DNA of 62,962 nucleotides from an uncultured bacterium. Lineage in GTDB: Bacteria > Patescibacteriota > Minisyncoccia > Phycocordibacterales > Phycocordibacteraceae. Below the pieces are notes generated by a model. The model worked only from the letters and a program-made list of their open reading frames with translations, did not search any database and was not told where the DNA came from. Each line of letters starts with the position of its first letter. The first letter of the stretch is position 1. Where the stretch lies: NCBI GenBank assembly GCA_903994795.1, contig CAJEYI010000001.1:1-62962 (forward strand), written 5' to 3'. Below, in pieces: positions 10,044 through 59,957 of this stretch. Both the position numbers and the translations under genes were made by a program.

Positions 10044-10140
10044 ATAGTCTAAGTTGACGAGCAATTCCAGAGGAGTATTATTTCAGTATGTCTGTAGGCG
10101 AAAGCCTTGTTCAGCCTCTAGTATTAAGCTGATAAGCAGA

Positions 10141-10183
10141 CCAAATGAACTGAGCCCTCTTTATGAGGGCTCAGTTCATTTGG
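10141..10183. terminator. bidirectional terminator hairpin
   Basis: 17-19-bp perfect inverted repeat CCAAATGAACTGAGCCC/GGGCTCAGTTCATTTGG between convergent genes. Confidence 0.7.
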
Positions 10184-10571
10184 TATTTAATTCCATTATG
10201 CTCCAAAACGTTATCCTTCCTTTTCCAAGCTGTCGTAGTACCAACCTTACTTTTTTCTCTGGATTTTCACTTATCTTTGCATCAATGCCCCAGTATCTAG
10301 TGTTTTTAGTTGCTGCATATCTATGTGTTATGGGTAGGTTTGCCTTCAGGATTGGCATAATATTTGAAACCAATCTCAATCTGCGAAACTGCTCCGCAGG
10401 CTGTCTTTTGTGGCCGAGTCCATTATAAACAATATGATGAAATCCTTTAGCATTAAAAAATATTTTTGCTCGCACTGATTCGCACCAAATAGGATTTATA
10501 AACGCATTATATTGCTTACGAGCCGATTCTTTGAGTGCGCCTAATGATTTTGTTTCTTGTTCTGCATCCAT
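10176..10571 (-). CDS. hypothetical protein (131 aa)
   Basis: Only plausible ORF in the pgk-HIT gap. No motif recognised. Confidence 0.4.
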   Translation of the reverse strand: MDAEQETKSLGALKESARKQYNAFINPIWCESVRAKIFFNAKGFHHIVYNGLGHKRQPAEQFRRLRLVSNIMPILKANLPITHRYAATKNTRYWGIDAKISENPEKKVRLVLRQLGKGRITFWSIMELNTK

Positions 10572-45029: not shown

Positions 45030-45800
45030 ATGATTGCGCAGCAGAGTGATATAGAAGGACTCAAAGAAGCAGGAAGACGCTTTGGGTCGATTCTCGATGC
45101 GGTCGCGGCTGCGGTACGACCTGGAGTGACGACTGGCGAACTCGATGCGCTTTCAGAGAAACTCATTCGTGATGGTGGAGACATTCCGTCTTTCAAAGGA
45201 TATCGACCAGAAGGTGCTCCGAGAGCATATCCTGCGACGTGCTGCATATCCGTGAACGACGAAGTCGTTCACGGTATTCCTGGTTCTCGAGTATTAAAAG
45301 AGGGCGATCTAGTAACGCTCGATCTCGGATTAACGCATGACGGGTACGTTATGGACTCAGCAGTGACTGTTCCTGTTGGAAAAGTCTCAAAGGAAGCCGA
45401 GGCACTTATGCGAGCGACGCAAGCGTCGCTCGAGTCTGCTATCCTTGCGGCGCGCCCTGGCGCGCGTATCGGCGACATTTCTCACGCCACAGAGCTCGCC
45501 TTCAAAGGCACAGGCTTCTCAGTCGTTAAGCTCCTAGGAGGTCATGGAGTGGGCGGAGCAGTCCATGAGGAGCCATTTATTGCGAACGCAGGCCATCCTG
45601 GAACAGGTCCAGAGATTGTTCCTGGTATGGTTCTCGCGCTTGAGCCTATCGCAAATGCCGGAAAGGCAAGTGTATTCATTGCTCCTGACGGCTTCACGTA
45701 TCGCACAAAAGATGGATCCATTTCAGCTCACTTCGAGCACACCATACTCGTACTAGACAATGAGACGATTGTTCTTACACGCCGCCCATCAGAAGGTTAG
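45030..45800 (+). CDS. map: methionine aminopeptidase type I
   Basis: VVHGIP, DLG, GHGVG and EP metal-ligand pattern. Confidence 0.95.
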   Translation: MIAQQSDIEGLKEAGRRFGSILDAVAAAVRPGVTTGELDALSEKLIRDGGDIPSFKGYRPEGAPRAYPATCCISVNDEVVHGIPGSRVLKEGDLVTLDLGLTHDGYVMDSAVTVPVGKVSKEAEALMRATQASLESAILAARPGARIGDISHATELAFKGTGFSVVKLLGGHGVGGAVHEEPFIANAGHPGTGPEIVPGMVLALEPIANAGKASVFIAPDGFTYRTKDGSISAHFEHTILVLDNETIVLTRRPSEG

Positions 45801-45894
45801 TGCTCGCAGCCTGTTTGCCTGGTATCTTCAGTTTTTTCCTTTATACTGCCTATATAAACGCCACCGGCGATTTTTTATTCATTTATAAAACCTT

Positions 45895-46503
45895 ATGCCC
45901 ATTCCTCATCCAAAGACAGAACGAACATTCGTTATTATTAAGCCAGATGGCGTTCAGCGCTCACTCATTGGAGAAATTATTAAGCGTTTTGAGCGTTCAG
46001 GCCTAAAGCTCATTGGTCTCAAACTCACAACTCTCGATTCAGACCGCATCTGGAAGCACTACAACAAAGACGATGCGTGGTTTATTAAGAAAGGTACAAA
46101 GATTGCTGAAGACCGTGCTGCTGCAGGACTTTCAGCTGAGAAGGAGCCAATTGAATACGGAAAGGACATCATCCGCGCTCTTGATAAGTTTATGACTGCT
46201 GGTCCTGTCGTCATGATGGCATGGGAAGGAAACTCTGCTGTTGGCGTAATCACAAAGCTTGTTGGTGGCACAGAGCCTTCAACATCAGACGTTGGAACAA
46301 TCCGCGGAGACTACACAATTGACTCATACAATATTGCAGCAATTGATGACCGTGCAGTTCGAAACCTCATCCACTGCTCAGATACTCCTGAGAACGCAGA
46401 GTCTGAAATCGCCCTCTGGTTTACTCCTGAAGAGCTTCTCTCATACCGCCTCATGGTTGATGAAATCCTCTATGATGTAAATCTAGACGGGATAATGGAG
46501 TAG
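45895..46503 (+). CDS. ndk: nucleoside diphosphate kinase (long variant with insertions)
   Basis: Motifs ERTFVIIKPDGV, GTIRGDY and NLIHCSD. Confidence 0.85.
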   Translation: MPIPHPKTERTFVIIKPDGVQRSLIGEIIKRFERSGLKLIGLKLTTLDSDRIWKHYNKDDAWFIKKGTKIAEDRAAAGLSAEKEPIEYGKDIIRALDKFMTAGPVVMMAWEGNSAVGVITKLVGGTEPSTSDVGTIRGDYTIDSYNIAAIDDRAVRNLIHCSDTPENAESEIALWFTPEELLSYRLMVDEILYDVNLDGIME

Positions 46504-46665
46504 GATATAATTCAAGCAGAAGCCAGTCGTTAAAACGCAACTTGCTTCAATTTAGGGAGGTTTATATCCCGCGAACCCGCAAAGTTTCCTTAGAAACTTT
46601 CAAAGGCGCGCGATGCGACCACCCACGTGGCACCCAAAAGTTGCCACAGACGGCTGGCTTCCGAC

Positions 46666-46696
46666 AAAACCCGCACTCGAAAGAGCTGTGGGTTTT
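46666..46696 (+). terminator. intrinsic terminator
   Basis: AAAACCCGCA-CTC-GAAA-GAG-C-TGTGGGTTTT. Confidence 0.65.
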
Positions 46697-46722
46697 GTCG
46701 TTGGCAGAATAACTTTGTGACA

Positions 46723-46751
46723 TTGACATTTTTATATAATATGTTTAATAT
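46723..46751 (+). promoter_or_regulatory. consensus promoter of GC-rich cassette C
   Basis: TTGACA, 17 nt, TAATAT. Confidence 0.6.
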
Positions 46752-46798
46752 GTATGCAACCACAAACCCGTGGTAACCACTATTGCTTGGAGGATTGC

Positions 46799-46993
46799 AT
46801 GGAAGTTCTTTCGGAGCTGGGTGCCTTGTACATCAATCTGGCGACGCGCTGGAACGAGTTCGCCGACAGGCACACTGTCGAAATAACGGTGTGCCTTGGC
46901 GAGCTCGCGCAAGCGGCTCTCGCTGGGTTCTTGTGGTATTGCCACAAGAACCCTTGCCGTACCGTCAACCGCCGCCCGTATCATCATCAGTAG
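46799..46993 (+). CDS. small Cys-containing protein (64 aa), GC-rich cassette C
   Basis: GGAGGA 5 nt before the ATG. 46 of 64 codons end in G/C. The region is open in several frames and contains a 12-bp perfect hairpin, so coding status is uncertain. Confidence 0.4.
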   Translation: MEVLSELGALYINLATRWNEFADRHTVEITVCLGELAQAALAGFLWYCHKNPCRTVNRRPYHHQ

Positions 46994-47042
46994 TCGCGCA
47001 CTCGTCGCCGGTCTTACTGAAGCCCCGGCTCTCTGAAGTCAA

Positions 47043-47080
47043 CCGCCGACAAGGTCTAACCTTGTCGGCGGGTTTCATTT
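47043..47080 (+). terminator. terminator of cassette C
   Basis: CCGCCGACAAGG-TCTAA-CCTTGTCGGCGG, then GTTTCATTTT. Confidence 0.7.
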
Positions 47081-47102
47081 TGTTATTGAAAGTTATGCGA
47101 AT

Positions 47103-48059
47103 ATGTTGAAATTTTTGGTATATGATGAACTTATGAGATTCAACAGTCCAGAAGGATTTAAAAAACTACAAGAAACAAAACCAATTCGAAAGACTGAAAC
47201 AAAAACAGTATTCGAAACCGATGCACATGGTGGCCCTGTGATCGAAGTTCTTGGTCCTAGACCCAAAGCATATTCGTTTCAAGTAGATACTAGCTATGAA
47301 AAGAAAACGCTACAAAGTCTAAAGGGAACTTTTTACTTAACTAAGATACTGCATTTACTAAGACCAGGCAGTGTGCCGGACATTAGGCAGTCCGGTGAAA
47401 CAAGAGAGGGTGAGCAGATTATTGATCGGGAATCGTATACGCGCAAGAAAATAAAAAAAATAGGCATAGCTGGAAAAGTACATGAAGAGATGCGCGATAT
47501 TGGCTTAGGTAATGCACTTGCACATAAGCCAGAGAATTATAACGAAAATGGTGACGGAAGTATTTCCTATTTAGAGGAGTTTGAACCATGGATAATTAAT
47601 CCAGAAACAAGGACAGTGGAATGGAACTTTGATAGAGATTCACTAATAGCAGCTATAGATGCAGTACAAGACCCTGAAGCGCAGACGAGGTGTAGGACTT
47701 TTTTTGAAAGACTTGAAATCCTGCATAACGAAGCACAAGAAAGTTTTGCCGATGCAGAGATTGCTCGGACTAAAGAAGCTCAAGAGCTTACGGAAAGGCT
47801 TGAGAGAATAATGGACGAATTTGAAAAAAAACACGATCTCGATTTGCTATTAAATATTAAGACTAAGGAAGAAGCAGAAGCGAGTAAGGAAAGAGTTGCT
47901 GCGCATGAGGACTTTAAAGCCATAGAACCAATCTTAAGATTGTTAGTTGTTCCGTATATTTCTGATGAAAAAATGCAGGAATTAACGGCCAGGAAACTTA
48001 TGTTTTCGAATGCAATTGGGGGCATAAATAATATAACTGGTTTAATGAACCGTAGATAA
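47103..48059 (+). CDS. hypothetical protein (318 aa)
   Basis: AT-rich ORF with a charged, helical C-terminal half. No motif recognised. Confidence 0.5.
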   Translation: MLKFLVYDELMRFNSPEGFKKLQETKPIRKTETKTVFETDAHGGPVIEVLGPRPKAYSFQVDTSYEKKTLQSLKGTFYLTKILHLLRPGSVPDIRQSGETREGEQIIDRESYTRKKIKKIGIAGKVHEEMRDIGLGNALAHKPENYNENGDGSISYLEEFEPWIINPETRTVEWNFDRDSLIAAIDAVQDPEAQTRCRTFFERLEILHNEAQESFADAEIARTKEAQELTERLERIMDEFEKKHDLDLLLNIKTKEEAEASKERVAAHEDFKAIEPILRLLVVPYISDEKMQELTARKLMFSNAIGGINNITGLMNRR

Positions 48060-48098
48060 AGTCACAAACGATACTATTAGTTTTGATATACTAGAATT

Positions 48099-48716
48099 AT
48101 GGAAAAGAATATCGAAGTCGAAATACGGGGACTACTTACACCAGAGGAATACTCGAAGCTGAAATCCTTTCTTGATAAAGAGGGTGAAAAGACAGAGGAA
48201 AAAGATAGAATTTTAATTGACTACTCCACATTTCTTCCTGGGGGAGTTGAGGAACGCAAGAAAGATATTCGATTGAGGGTCACGAATGGCGTGCCAGAAA
48301 TTGTGGTTAAGCTTGGGGAATGGGGCGGAACAGAGCAACGCAAAGAGCTGTCAGTTAAAACAGCGCCAGGAACATTCGACACACTGACTGAAATTTTTGA
48401 AGCACTAGGGTACGAGAAAGGGGTGCTAGCAGTACGCAAAAGTCAGGTATATATGTACAAAGATATAGAGTTTGCTCTCGTAGAGGTGCCTGGTCACAGT
48501 TATTACTTCGAAGCAGAAAAAATGGCACATGCTGAGGAAAACGCAGATGAATTACTTGAGGAGATGCAGGCCGTCTGTAAAGAATTGGGACTCTCAGTTT
48601 TTTCAAAAGAGGAATTCTTTGCGTATGTTCAAAAATTAAACAAAGAAGCGAACGGAGTATTCGATGCTTCTATGGCTGAGCCGGACTATTTCAAAAAGAA
48701 TTATGGTCTTGAGTAA
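48099..48716 (+). CDS. CYTH-domain protein (class IV adenylyl cyclase / triphosphatase family)
   Basis: N-terminal EVEIRG (ExExK-like) and alternating charged beta-strand pattern. Confidence 0.6.
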   Translation: MEKNIEVEIRGLLTPEEYSKLKSFLDKEGEKTEEKDRILIDYSTFLPGGVEERKKDIRLRVTNGVPEIVVKLGEWGGTEQRKELSVKTAPGTFDTLTEIFEALGYEKGVLAVRKSQVYMYKDIEFALVEVPGHSYYFEAEKMAHAEENADELLEEMQAVCKELGLSVFSKEEFFAYVQKLNKEANGVFDASMAEPDYFKKNYGLE

Positions 48717-48770
48717 AATGTACGTGAATTTACTCTTCGCGATAGATACGTACATTATTTAAATAATATG

Positions 48771-48802
48771 AAAACCCGCCGCGGTCCGGGGACAACGGCG
48801 GG
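48771..48802 (-). terminator. terminator of GC-rich cassette B
   Basis: CCCGCCG...CGGCGGG stem, followed by TTTT on the minus strand. Confidence 0.6.
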
Positions 48803-48824
48803 CGCTTCCAGAGTGGAAGATTTC

Positions 48825-48986
48825 TCAGGGCCTGCGGACTGACCGCGGGAAGAGCCTGGACTCGACCCAGTCGTAGGCGCGCTCGCCGACGAGGCACGTT
48901 GAGAGACACAGGCAGGAGGAGATCAGAGCGAAGCTCACTCCCGCCACAATCCTATGGGCGGCGGCCCACGTATCGAAATCACTCAT
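48825..48986 (-). CDS. small hydrophobic Cys-rich protein (53 aa), GC-rich cassette B
   Basis: Not in the ORF track because it is under 60 aa. GAGGA 6 nt before the ATG. 43 of 53 codons end in G/C. Product: MSDFDTWAAAHRIVAGVSFALISSCLCLSTCLVGERAYDWVESRLFPRSVRRP. Confidence 0.45.
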   Translation of the reverse strand: MSDFDTWAAAHRIVAGVSFALISSCLCLSTCLVGERAYDWVESRLFPRSVRRP

Positions 48987-49031
48987 CGTCTGTCCTCAAT
49001 TGAGTCACGCGGGATGCAGTGACTTCATGCT

Positions 49032-49082
49032 ATATTATACATATTTCAGTATATTGTCAAGTACACTGTTTAGTATTAATAT
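49032..49082. promoter_or_regulatory. back-to-back divergent promoters sharing the -35 (TTGTCAA/TTGACAA)
   Basis: Minus strand: TTGACA (49060-49055), 17 nt, TAATAT. Plus strand: TTGTCA (49054-49059), 17 nt, TAATAT (49077-49082), 6 nt before ATG 49089. Confidence 0.55.
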
Positions 49083-49088
49083 ATACAG

Positions 49089-49295
49089 ATGGCAACATAC
49101 TCCCGGCAATTTATAAACGATAAAGGTGAGTCAGTCTCTGTGCTTGTAGGGGATGATGACCGAAATGGAGTGAAGGGTGTGAGAATCTATGTGACGGCTC
49201 CAGACGAAGATTCAGAGATATTTGTTTCACGACAAGAGGCAGTTGAGGTGCTTGAAGGGCTTTCTAGGATAATGCGCACCAAGAATCCTCGCTAG
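49089..49295 (+). CDS. hypothetical small acidic protein (68 aa)
   Basis: Leaderless-type start. Divergent from cassette B. Confidence 0.4.
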   Translation: MATYSRQFINDKGESVSVLVGDDDRNGVKGVRIYVTAPDEDSEIFVSRQEAVEVLEGLSRIMRTKNPR

Positions 49296-49298
49296 TTG

Positions 49299-49760
49299 CT
49301 ATAGAGGGAGAAATTCGATTCGCTCAAAGTCCGCCGCGCGTTGTTTGTAGTATACGTTTGCACGGAACTCCTCACCTGCTACTGCTTTGGAGAACCATTC
49401 TCGATCTGACTCGAGCATGCGATCAAGAGGAAGTGCGTCAATAGGAAACCATTCAGGAATCATATCGACTGTTTCAGTTGGTGTGCCGGTGAATTCATGT
49501 GTGAGATATACGTGCACTTCAAAGTCTGGCTCGCCTGCTGCAAAGAATGTAATTATGGAGATGAGCTTGAGGCTCTCAGGATGGAGTGTAATACCAAGCT
49601 CTTCGTCAGTCTCTCGAATAACACATTCAACTGTAGTCTCGCCTGGTTCGACTTTTCCACCTGGACCGTTATAGGTTTGGGTACCAATCTCACCTTTTTT
49701 CTTAAGACCCAGCAAGACTTTGTCTTGCTGGCGAATAATTGCAAGTGTTGCGACTTTCAT
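49299..49760 (-). CDS. NUDIX hydrolase
   Basis: Nudix box GPGGKVEPGETTVECVIRETDEELGI. The start is taken at the internal ATG to avoid overlap. Confidence 0.85.
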   Translation of the reverse strand: MKVATLAIIRQQDKVLLGLKKKGEIGTQTYNGPGGKVEPGETTVECVIRETDEELGITLHPESLKLISIITFFAAGEPDFEVHVYLTHEFTGTPTETVDMIPEWFPIDALPLDRMLESDREWFSKAVAGEEFRANVYYKQRAADFERIEFLPL

Positions 49761-49816
49761 ATGTCTAATAGTATAGCAACGAATTGCGTTGGGATTTGGT
49801 GTGGTAAATTTAAGAG

Positions 49817-51217
49817 ATGTCACTACGTCTCACTTGCTACGGCGCTGCCGAAACTGTAACTGGTTCTAATTTCTTAGTGGAAGGTCCCAAAGGAAAGATT
49901 CTTATAGATTGTGGTATTGAGCAGGGAAGGGACTTTGTGGAGTCAGAAATGTATAAGCCGTTTGCGTATGATGTTCCTTCAATAGACGCACTCGTCATAA
50001 CGCATGCACACCTCGACCACATTGGTCGCGCACCGAAACTCATAAATGAAGGCTTTAAGGGTCGAGTGTTCACAACAGCTCCAACACGAGACCTCACCGA
50101 AATAATGCTTCGTGATACCGTGAAGATATTGGCGGAGACTGCTAGAGAGCACGGCCTCCCACTTCTCTATACAGATGACGACGTAACCAAGTTCCTTGAG
50201 AAGATTGAGGTCATTGCATATCACGAAGAAAAAGAAGTTGCTCCAGGGCTCTCAATCTTCTTGCGTCAGACCGGTCACATACTTGGTTCTGCAAGCGTGC
50301 GCATAAAAGATTTATCTGACGATACATCCCTCGCTCTCACTGGAGACATTGGAAATATGCCATCGCCATATCTTCCTGACTGGGAAGCGATCACTGATGC
50401 AGATGCGGTGCTTATGGAAAGTGTGTATGGAGACAGGGTAAATGCGGATAAGGAGGATCGTGTCGCGCTTTTGCGCGACACGATCAAGAAGTCCGTCGCT
50501 CGCGGCGGCGTCATTCTCATACCAGCATTCTCTATTGAGCGCACTCAGCTCATGCTCTACGAATTTTCAAAGTTAATGGAAGAAGGTGAGATTCCTCATG
50601 TGCCGGTGTATCTTGACTCACCACTCGCCATTAAAGCTACAGAAGTATATGAGAAGTGGGGGAGCGAATTCTTCAAGTCTGCTGCAGAAGAAGAGTTGCA
50701 CCGACGACATGATCTATTTAAATTCCCATTTCTCATGGAGACCCCTTCACGCCAGGATTCTGAGGAAATTGCAAAAGCACCTAATCCTAAAATCATTATG
50801 GCTGGCGCTGGCATGTCGCATGGTGGCCGTATCGGACATTGGGAGCAAAAATACCTTCCAGACCCAACGACCACACTTATCATTGTGGGCTATCAGGCTC
50901 CAGGAAGCCCTGGACGCTTGCTTCAGGATGGTGCGCCCCATGTACGTCTCGGAGGTGTAGATGTGCGTGTACGAGCCAAAATAGAGACTTTTGTGGGGTG
51001 GTCAGCACACGCAGACAGAGACGGATTACTTGATTTTGCAAAAGCGGCACTCCCAGAGTCAGGAGGACGCACGAAGAACTTCTTCGTGGCACTCGGCGAG
51101 CCGTCCTCGGCTCGCTTCCTCGCGCAGCGAATTCATGATTATCTAGGCACGAATGCCATAGTGCCCACACAGGGAGAAAGCTTTGAGATCACAAAAGATA
51201 AGATTAAGCGACTATAA
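49817..51217 (+). CDS. MBL-fold beta-CASP ribonuclease-like hydrolase
   Basis: ITHAHLDHIG, the beta-CASP pattern, and a C-terminal SAHAD. Confidence 0.8.
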   Translation: MSLRLTCYGAAETVTGSNFLVEGPKGKILIDCGIEQGRDFVESEMYKPFAYDVPSIDALVITHAHLDHIGRAPKLINEGFKGRVFTTAPTRDLTEIMLRDTVKILAETAREHGLPLLYTDDDVTKFLEKIEVIAYHEEKEVAPGLSIFLRQTGHILGSASVRIKDLSDDTSLALTGDIGNMPSPYLPDWEAITDADAVLMESVYGDRVNADKEDRVALLRDTIKKSVARGGVILIPAFSIERTQLMLYEFSKLMEEGEIPHVPVYLDSPLAIKATEVYEKWGSEFFKSAAEEELHRRHDLFKFPFLMETPSRQDSEEIAKAPNPKIIMAGAGMSHGGRIGHWEQKYLPDPTTTLIIVGYQAPGSPGRLLQDGAPHVRLGGVDVRVRAKIETFVGWSAHADRDGLLDFAKAALPESGGRTKNFFVALGEPSSARFLAQRIHDYLGTNAIVPTQGESFEITKDKIKRL

Positions 51218-56116: not shown

Positions 56117-56170
56117 GCCCACCTCCACCAGATAAACAAAAACCACCTATCGGTGGCCATGTTTATATCT

Positions 56171-56592
56171 GGTGGAGGTGGGGGTAGTTGAAACCCCGTC
56201 CGAATCCGGCTTTGAGAGCGAGTCTACGACGCGTAGTTCATATTAGTGTTTCAGAATGAAGGTAAAAACAGGAACGAAACCCTTCACACCTACGCCCGTT
56301 TTTTAAGAGACTTATGTGGGCACATGAATCTTCCGATCCCATAGAGAATTCCGCCCAATCACCCAGCTATGAGAACCTGGAATGATGAACGTCGCTCAGC
56401 GAGGCGAGCCGAAGCTCAAGCCTGCTTACGCGAACGCAAAGTCGCTCGGAGTAAAATACCTCGAAACGATGCTCTTTGCGCTTGCAACTGTAGTGTTAGC
56501 AAGTATTTGTGCTTGTGGGATTTGAGTGTCCAGCAAGCTTGCACTGCGTCGCACGTCTCTCAAAGAGCAGACCGTCAAAACCGGTCACCCCC
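56171..56592 (-). ncRNA. ssrA: tmRNA (SsrA)
   Basis: 5' GGGGGUGACCGGUUUUGACGG and 3' GGAUUCGGACGGGGUUUCAACUACCCCCACCUCCACCA. The acceptor stem has a G3:U70 pair. Lies directly downstream of smpB. Confidence 0.9.
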
Positions 56593-59881: not shown

Positions 59882-59957
59882 ACGCGCGTAGCTCAATTGG
59901 TAGAGCACTGAGCTTATACCTCAGCGGTTGCAGGATCGTGCCCTGCCGCGCGTACCA
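59882..59957 (+). tRNA. tRNA with anticodon UAU (Ile, AUA-reading), CCA encoded
   Basis: Hand-folded cloverleaf: acceptor ACGCGCG/CGCGCGT, D arm GCTC-AATTGGTA-GAGC, anticodon arm CTGAG-CTTATAC-CTCAG, T arm GCAGG-ATCGTGC-CCTGC, discriminator A, CCA. Confidence 0.7.

Follow-up and report, generated by a model that had tools for sequence, protein, structure and literature searches.

Among described systems, the type I toxin mRNAs hok, aapA1, dinQ, tisB and zorO can be likened to the element analysed here. As far as the available descriptions go, the hok and dinQ mRNAs fold very stably, pair their 5' and 3' parts and keep the ribosome-binding site partly paired. Dual-function small RNAs (sRNAs) such as RNAIII/hld, SgrS/SgrT and SR1/SR1P are a second point of reference. 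The element itself lies at 46723-47086 on the + strand of the window, i.e. the whole 62,962-nucleotide (nt) stretch of DNA that was analysed (contig 1 of the genome of an uncultured Patescibacteria bacterium); all coordinates are positions in this window. The unit is real and exceptional in statistical terms, but an orphan. We read it, with a probability of about 0.45, as a moron-like orphan gene that encodes a small membrane-type peptide folded as a helical hairpin, carried by a hyper-structured mRNA resembling those of type I toxins. In the sections of PMC2887945 on which we draw, type I toxins are described as ORFs (open reading frames) shorter than about 60-70 amino acids (aa) with a hydrophobic helix and a polar or aromatic C-terminus, and type I loci were searched for with thresholds of 400 and 250 nt to the flanking genes. 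Morons, in the portion of PMC3594210 considered, carry their own promoter and terminator, have a G+C content (GC) unlike that of their neighbours and are inserted where relatives have two genes side by side.

The unit is GC-rich over about 320 nt (GC 0.57-0.59, against 0.38-0.46 in neighbouring genes). It begins with a sigma-70-type promoter match, TTGACA-17-TAATAT (46723-46728 and 46746-46751, + strand; 10/12 matches), which the initial annotation had placed at 46723-46751 and which is also returned by our promoter and terminator scan. Transcription would start near 46758, about 7 nt past the -10 box, giving a putative 5' untranslated region (UTR) of about 41 nt where about 45 nt had been proposed. 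A Shine-Dalgarno (SD)-like motif, GGAGGA (46789-46794, +), is read in the sequence as first described; it is separated from the ATG by the 4 nt TTGC and not by 5 nt. The ORF listed there comprises 64 codons, from the ATG at 46799 to a TAG stop codon at 46991-46993 (46799-46993, +), with the sequence and translation already given. The transcription unit ends with an intrinsic terminator (47043-47086, +, from the same scan) composed of a 13-bp stem with nine G-C pairs, a 3-nt loop and an interrupted T-run. The stem-loop occupies 47043-47071, within the 47043-47080 of the initial annotation, and is followed by the tail GTTTCATTTT. The GC-rich stretch runs 80 nt past the stop codon of the ORF. Other open frames overlap the unit, of 79/64, 108, 46 and 38 aa on the + strand and of 80, 62 and 37 aa on the - strand.

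The base composition of the 64-codon ORF favours its being a coding frame. GC at the first, second and third codon positions (GC1, GC2 and GC3) equals 0.59, 0.42 and 0.72, a spread reached in 0.19% of 20,000 shuffles (P ~0.002). The first two values match the host means (GC1 0.55 and GC2 0.41 over 535 long ORFs), and GC3 is close to the 99th percentile of the host, 0.75; at 0.719 it reproduces the earlier count of 46 of 64 codons ending in G or C. The order GC3>GC1>GC2 occurs in none of the other open frames. Overlapping ORFs had been put down to the GC-rich island as such, an argument that holds for these other frames but not for the codon-position pattern. AlphaFold2, run without alignment, models the product with a mean pLDDT (predicted local distance difference test) of 86.3 as a helical hairpin (helices 2-24 and 26-50). 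The antisense 80-aa ORF, used as control, reaches 60.6, with its other four models at 40-44. The predicted peptide combines an amphipathic and a hydrophobic helix with a basic tail rich in Cys and His; residues 46-64 read WYCHKNPCRTVNRRPYHHQ. It is probably membrane-associated.

The predicted fold of the transcript is exceptional. The minimum free energy (MFE) of 46755-47085 is -143.4 kcal/mol; 100 dinucleotide-shuffled sequences give -110.7 +/- 5.4 (z -6.05), and none of them folds as well. All three structural motifs of the initial annotation are present on the + strand: a perfect 12-bp hairpin GGGTTCTTGTGG-TATTG-CCACAAGAACCC in codons 43-52 (46925-46953; 13 pairs with the closing G-U in the MFE structure), the hairpin CGACAG-GCACA-CTGTCG (46864-46880) and the palindrome GCGAGCTCGC (46899-46908). 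The MFE structure includes an extended 22-pair hairpin (46855-46907, +) made of an outer helix of 11 pairs (46855-46865/46897-46907) and an inner helix of 11 pairs with a 7-nt loop (46868-46878/46886-46896, i.e. 46868-46896, +). Predicted long-range helices close the coding region, with the 3' UTR pairing back to codons 5-16. Their 5' strands lie within 46813-46846 (+): 46813-46821 and 46823-46824 pair with 47022-47032, and 46838-46846 pairs with 47003-47011; the strands contributed by the 3' UTR fall within 47003-47032 (+). The SD region (46789-46796) is predicted to pair with 46804-46811 (codons 3-5) in a weak hairpin of eight pairs, four of them G-U, and the SD motif and the ATG have mean unpaired probabilities of 0.36 and 0.49, respectively. 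Hairpins with stems of at least 11 bp number 241 in the 902,262-nt genome (0.27 per kb). The unit holds three of them in about 200 nt; a trio of such hairpins inside 330 nt occurs at only three places of the genome.

The structure of the ORF also exceeds what its protein imposes. The native ORF folds at -86.5 kcal/mol, compared with -69.1 +/- 6.4 when its synonymous codons are permuted and -69.1 +/- 7.2 for synonymous recodings matched in GC3; in each set 3 of 300 are as good. Since the ORF outfolds recodings that preserve the protein, it carries RNA structure beyond the demand of its amino acids, and the caveat of the initial annotation that a function at the RNA level is a serious alternative was justified. 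This alternative, a non-coding, lineage-specific structured sRNA that, for example, binds a protein or pairs with a target and whose ORF is an accident of GC richness, is in our judgement rather unlikely. The depth of the fold, the surplus over the protein-imposed structure and the local density of long hairpins all argue for it, as do the high GC maintained beyond the stop codon, the four other frames that are open and the lack of any protein homologue found. A pure RNA gene is nevertheless not expected to display the codon-position GC pattern, nor a correctly spaced SD and ATG, nor a confidently modelled peptide next to a poorly modelled antisense control. Rfam gives no match to the region at gathering score, and at E up to 10 the interval 46450-47150 returns single-hairpin chance matches only (ncr1175, mir-35 and U7, E 0.5-8). 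Dual-function sRNAs resemble the unit in being highly structured RNAs of a few hundred nt with their own promoter, terminator and small ORF, and differ from it in that the ORF makes up 60% of the transcript here.

The only relative found is a 344-nt contig from a lake-water metagenome (run X1). It aligns without gap to 46821-46981, almost exactly the ORF, with 23 differences in 161 nt. Then 81 unlike letters replace the 83 nt at 46982-47064, from codon 62 to the terminator, and the alignment resumes at 47065-47166, the start of the next gene, with 7 differences in 102 nt. The relative keeps the cassette and its junction with the following 318-aa gene, and both therefore exist in a second, independent data set. 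The metagenome comparison lists the best-supported differences, with 175 more over all contigs. As the listed differences of this contig are all at least 37 nt from a piece end, we take the list to cover 46857-46944 in full and 46821-46856 and 46945-46981 in part. The region 46724-46800 has no contig cover in any of the four runs, which is evidence of nothing.

The 12 differences listed for 46857-46944 fall on codon positions 1, 2 and 3 in the proportion 4/5/3 and result in the changes E20A, E28D, I29I, E35M, L36I, Q38L, A39V, F44T and C48R; none creates a stop codon. Four of the five replacements at residues 27-47 are to M, I, L or V, and hydrophobicity would rise according to a hand calculation. 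Although the numbers are small, such a pattern would be compatible with a membrane helix in which nothing but hydrophobicity is constrained. At the RNA level, both stems of the 46868-46896 hairpin are unchanged, with two changes in the loop; the changes at 46912 and 46914 keep wobble pairs and that at 46940 affects a loop. Positions 46950 and 46949, which pair with 46928 and 46929, belong to the incompletely listed stretch. The outer helix 46855-46865/46897-46907 loses 4 of its 11 pairs, and the 3' strands of the long-range helices are inside the replaced stretch. The kept stems and the lack of a third-position bias are what a structured sRNA would lead one to expect, the broken outer helix and the replaced 3' strands are not. 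The initial annotation had looked to synonymous bias or covariation among homologues: the only relative is without synonymous bias and part of one helix is lost, a pattern that reveals neither a conserved protein nor a fully conserved structure. Its description of the layout stands and the new evidence favours its coding frame, whereas these two forms of conservation do not appear.

The same comparison bears on another explanation, that the unit is a decaying or neutral insert, a leftover of GC-richer foreign DNA (a former small gene) no longer under selection. We regard this as unlikely. The unit is confined to this species and one near relative, where its divergence exceeds that of its flanks (23 differences in 161 nt and 83 nt that are unalignable, against 7 in 102 nt), replacements outnumber silent codon changes, and GC3 approaches the upper limit of the host distribution. 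An abandoned gene would, on the other hand, hardly retain an ORF, an SD, a promoter and a terminator that are all intact, or 161 nt aligning without a gap in the relative. Perfect helices of 11-13 bp and a fold at z -6 would quickly erode if unselected, and the synonymous sites appear tuned for structure.

As a small orphan gene, the unit shares several traits with type I toxin loci. Its 64 codons are within the criterion of fewer than about 60-70 aa and its product has a polar and aromatic C-terminus (residues 46-64), both as characterised in the sections of PMC2887945 used here. A second resemblance, drawn from descriptions available in part, is a heavily folded mRNA with predicted 5'/3' pairing and a predicted partly paired ribosome-binding site. 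Like type I toxin genes, the unit stands alone in a variable region, evolves fast and is hard to find by homology. Unlike them, it shows no tandem duplication, its hydrophobic segment is weak in the window copy, and no similarity to known toxin families is found in profile libraries. Its flanking genes lie 296 nt upstream and 109 nt downstream, closer than the 400 and 250 nt given in the consulted part of PMC2887945. Pairing of the unit RNA with the RNA of a second GC-rich cassette at 48765-49060 is matched or exceeded in 66 of 200 shuffles. It is on the antitoxin that membership in a type I family fails.

Several results weigh against a peptide gene with a toxin-like mRNA. No promoter-like site was found on the minus strand in 45800-47400, and there is no minus-strand -10-like box within 46760-47100, in a search that covered consensus-type boxes only; with neither promoter nor box, an antitoxin RNA was not found. 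The + strand promoter match taken alone is at chance level for its region: the same scan returns three promoter-like sites in 45800-47400 (shuffles 2.4 +/- 1.5) and two terminator-like sites (shuffles 1.8 +/- 1.5). The minus strand folds equally well (z -5.73), so that the fold does not tell the strand, which is told by the promoter and the terminator. The best 19-residue Kyte-Doolittle mean is 1.51 (residues 27-45) and includes E35 and Q38, a weak value for a membrane helix. The ESM Atlas recognition value of the peptide is 1550, below the 2300 reached by 91 of 100 proteins of known families. The relative has eight nonsynonymous codon changes for one synonymous, so that purifying selection on the peptide is not apparent. 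As ordinary genes of the host begin without an SD, SD-dependent initiation is unproven in this host. Finally, no protein homologue is found among the sequences searched, and the peptide is thus without family support.

These searches covered both nucleotide and protein collections. BLASTN finds no homologue of the unit in 60 relatives, and in 221 other genomes of the genus it returns only 21-45-nt matches on hairpin arms, in 8 genomes (E 6e-4 to 0.01). A six-frame protein search of the same 221 genomes yields nothing credible (best E 0.001 per genome; 25 genomes with E up to 1). As there is no homologue in these 221 genomes, covariation is unavailable, which also deprives the sRNA alternative of such support. 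The cassette is present in 0 of 80 further named Patescibacteria ndk loci. A word-indexed search of 5.8 billion proteins, restricted to near lengths, detects no homologue of the 64-aa ORF, the ESM Atlas contains none, and its product has no family in Pfam, NCBIfam, PADLOC or PHROGs. With phmmer, the only match among 1.84 billion representatives is to a 584-aa tandem-repeat protein, in 9 stretches, and was judged spurious. An exact-pattern search of JGI metagenomes gives no credible match to the unit, and the 318-aa neighbour used as bait in JGI metagenomes, GTDB genomes and IMG/VR brings no credible relative. In IMG/VR, 25 stretches matched a seed of the 64-aa ORF by design. One of them, locus L056, has the seeded 8 residues NLATRWNE in a GC-rich ORF that looks off-frame; its flanks add little and it was treated as a chance match. 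The unit is not a repeat or mobile element, being single copy in the genome and outside any repeat family of the window, and it shares no similarity with 33 other GC-rich islands. As for housekeeping RNAs, the RNase P RNA is on another contig (C41), models of 6S RNA and of small and large signal recognition particle RNA have no match in the genome, and the unit, being absent from relatives, is not a universal housekeeping RNA.

The unit opens a lineage-specific island of 3.1 kb (about 46703-49800), delimited by synteny with relatives, metagenome contigs and Pfam annotation. The island contains the unit, the 318-aa orphan gene, a CYTH gene, the second GC-rich cassette (- strand), a 68-aa ORF and a NUDIX gene (- strand). 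Relatives carry at the same spot either a gene for a 119-130-aa membrane protein or directly the beta-CASP/MBL gene, which starts at 49817 in the window (Pfam). Upstream, ndk ends at 46503 and is followed by a conserved structured RNA and then by the unit. Metagenome contigs of other strains cease to match at 46681-46702, which makes the unit the first element of the island. The unit resembles morons, as presented in the consulted part of PMC3594210, in having its own promoter and terminator and a deviant GC, and in forming extra DNA between otherwise adjacent genes (ndk and the RNA on one side, the 119-aa or beta-CASP gene on the other). It differs from them in lacking a phage context: the flanking genes are housekeeping genes and the island is chromosomal, beside a conserved RNA gene. 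None of five island proteins matches PHROGs, and viral contigs (IMG/VR) give nothing credible, with one 8-residue match at chance level.

The 318-aa gene (47103-48059, + strand, from the ORF list) has a product without family in Pfam, PADLOC, PHROGs or NCBIfam. It begins 17-32 nt past the terminator, the distance varying with the point at which the T-run is considered to stop. This proximity, kept in the metagenomic relative, suggests that the unit could be a cis-acting leader or attenuator of the 318-aa gene, with the terminator bypassed perhaps in dependence on translation of the 64 codons. The + strand between 46751 and 47400 is without a promoter-like site and has weak boxes only, and 47003-47011 resembles the 3' arm of the terminator so that alternative pairings can be drawn. 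Many host genes, however, have only a -10-like box before the ATG, and the absence of a consensus promoter is thus weak evidence for a leader. The terminator consists of 13 perfect pairs and the MFE structure suggests no competing anti-terminator of similar strength. In genome G074, which encodes the only distant homologue of the 318-aa protein (34% identity over 142 aa), the gene is 37 nt after the preceding ORF, leaving no room for a leader there, and the unit matches no riboswitch or leader family. We consider such a role very unlikely.

The favoured explanation, an orphan peptide gene, would involve the following steps. The unit would have been gained recently, as a self-contained module, in a strain-specific island of this Patescibacteria genome. 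A transcript of about 320 nt would run from its consensus-type promoter to the strong intrinsic terminator, and the SD-led ORF would be translated into the small helical-hairpin peptide. The stable fold, in which three long hairpins lie within the ORF or downstream of it and codons 3-5 pair with part of the SD, could make the mRNA long-lived and restrain translation or ribosome access. We infer transcription, translation, membrane association and this regulatory role of the fold from the sequence.

The presence of an SD distinguishes the unit from ordinary genes of its genome (902,262 bp in 66 contigs, 45.7% GC, 96% complete). GGAG or GAGG precedes 7.3% of 737 long ORFs, which is about background, and GGAGG 1.2%. 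Regions upstream of ordinary genes are AT-rich, and in many of them a -10-like box, without a detectable -35, stands a few nt ahead of the ATG, which suggests that initiation there is largely leaderless or SD-independent. The 3' end of the 16S gene is not present in the assembly. Intergenic ORFs of 40-100 aa with SD and ATG number 11, against 3.4 +/- 1.7 in 30 shuffles (maximum 8). As the SD is rare in ordinary genes and small ORFs preceded by it are enriched, GGAGGA either truly marks a special class of genes or belongs to the RNA fold.

Other units resemble this one. The second GC-rich cassette of the island (48765-49060, - strand), headed at 49060 by the identical promoter hexamer pair TTGACA-17-TAATAT, has GAGGA 6 nt before the ATG of a 53-aa ORF (48825-48986) and a terminator-like hairpin near 48770-48800. 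Its product includes a hydrophobic stretch (Kyte-Doolittle 2.02) and several Cys; its GC3 is 0.81 and its fold has a z of -2.07. No homologue of it was found in 5.8 billion proteins or in the 221 genus genomes. Elsewhere in the genome, the unit G000:C25:10240-10520 (- strand; locus L142) shows GAAGGAG before an ATG, a 59-aa hydrophobic ORF, a 14-bp terminator and a z of -4.4, and has a DNA match in 0 of the 221 genus genomes. Three further loci have GC-rich small ORFs with SD-like motifs in AT-richer surroundings (fold z -0.8 to -2.5): G000:C35:3327-3700 (+) with a 64-aa ORF of GC3 0.95, G000:C16:6813-6600 (-) with GGGAGG ahead of a hydrophobic ORF that continues beyond a terminator-like hairpin, and G000:C6:26430-26830 (+) with a 101-aa ORF. 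The look-alikes at 48765-49060 and on C25 share no sequence with one another. It is quite doubtful, though conceivable, that at least the units at 46723-47086, 48765-49060 and on C25 belong to a set of species-specific, GC-rich, SD-led genes for small membrane peptides with hyper-structured mRNAs. Such modules, selfish or toxin-like and gained and lost faster than species diverge, would be a translation-control class of their own and perhaps the first loci in the phylum to resemble type I toxins.

The main interest of the unit is that it is one of several odd, SD-led, GC-rich cassettes in a Patescibacteria genome otherwise devoid of SD. Small genes and structured RNAs of these ultra-small, uncultured bacteria are almost unannotated, and a 0.9-Mb genome can carry strain-specific cassettes with signals unlike those of ordinary genes (consensus promoter, SD, high GC3 and strong terminator). 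If the peptide is made and membrane-active, the cassettes could serve episymbiotic bacteria as modules of addiction, competition or host interaction; if the RNA itself acts, its fold would be unusually compact and hyper-stable, without known relatives. The practical value is modest until expression is shown.

The conserved structured RNA that precedes the unit deserves separate mention. The region 46484-46702 (+ strand) is such an RNA and not a peptide cassette, while 48765-49060 (-) does match the cassette layout. The RNA is about 180 nt long, lies downstream of ndk (element at about 46521-46702) and has its own promoter match, TAGACG-16-TATAAT, and a terminator hairpin at 46663-46700. By BLASTN it follows ndk in 23 of 29 loci of the same genus and in 35 of 80 further Patescibacteria loci, and its 11-pair closing stem shows compensatory changes. 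In one relative (L030) it gives a full-length, sub-threshold match to Rfam 6S (35.1 bits, gathering score 46.4). No such match occurs in the nine other loci of that scan, nor in 19 more, and a literature search returned no paper naming both 'Candidate Phyla Radiation' and '6S RNA'. The element may represent either a new RNA or a 6S RNA that has diverged.

Some minor features complete the picture of the window and its genome. Two promoter-to-terminator units of about 100 nt that are not GC-rich, one at 10054-10184 (+) with a perfect 20-bp hairpin at its end and the other at 55051-54923 (-), may represent small RNAs or attenuators. Contigs C5, C26, C29, C39, C40, C43 and C64 have much higher GC or GC3 than the rest (GC 0.63 in C43 and 0.70 in C64; genes of C5 have GC3 of 0.6-0.8 and SD motifs) and may be foreign, mobile or mis-binned DNA. 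The window also includes a transfer-messenger RNA (tmRNA) gene at 56170-56592 (-; 99.3 bits) with the tag peptide ANTTVASAKSIVSRYFTPSDFAFA, and a tRNA-Ile gene with anticodon TAT at 59882-59957 (+).

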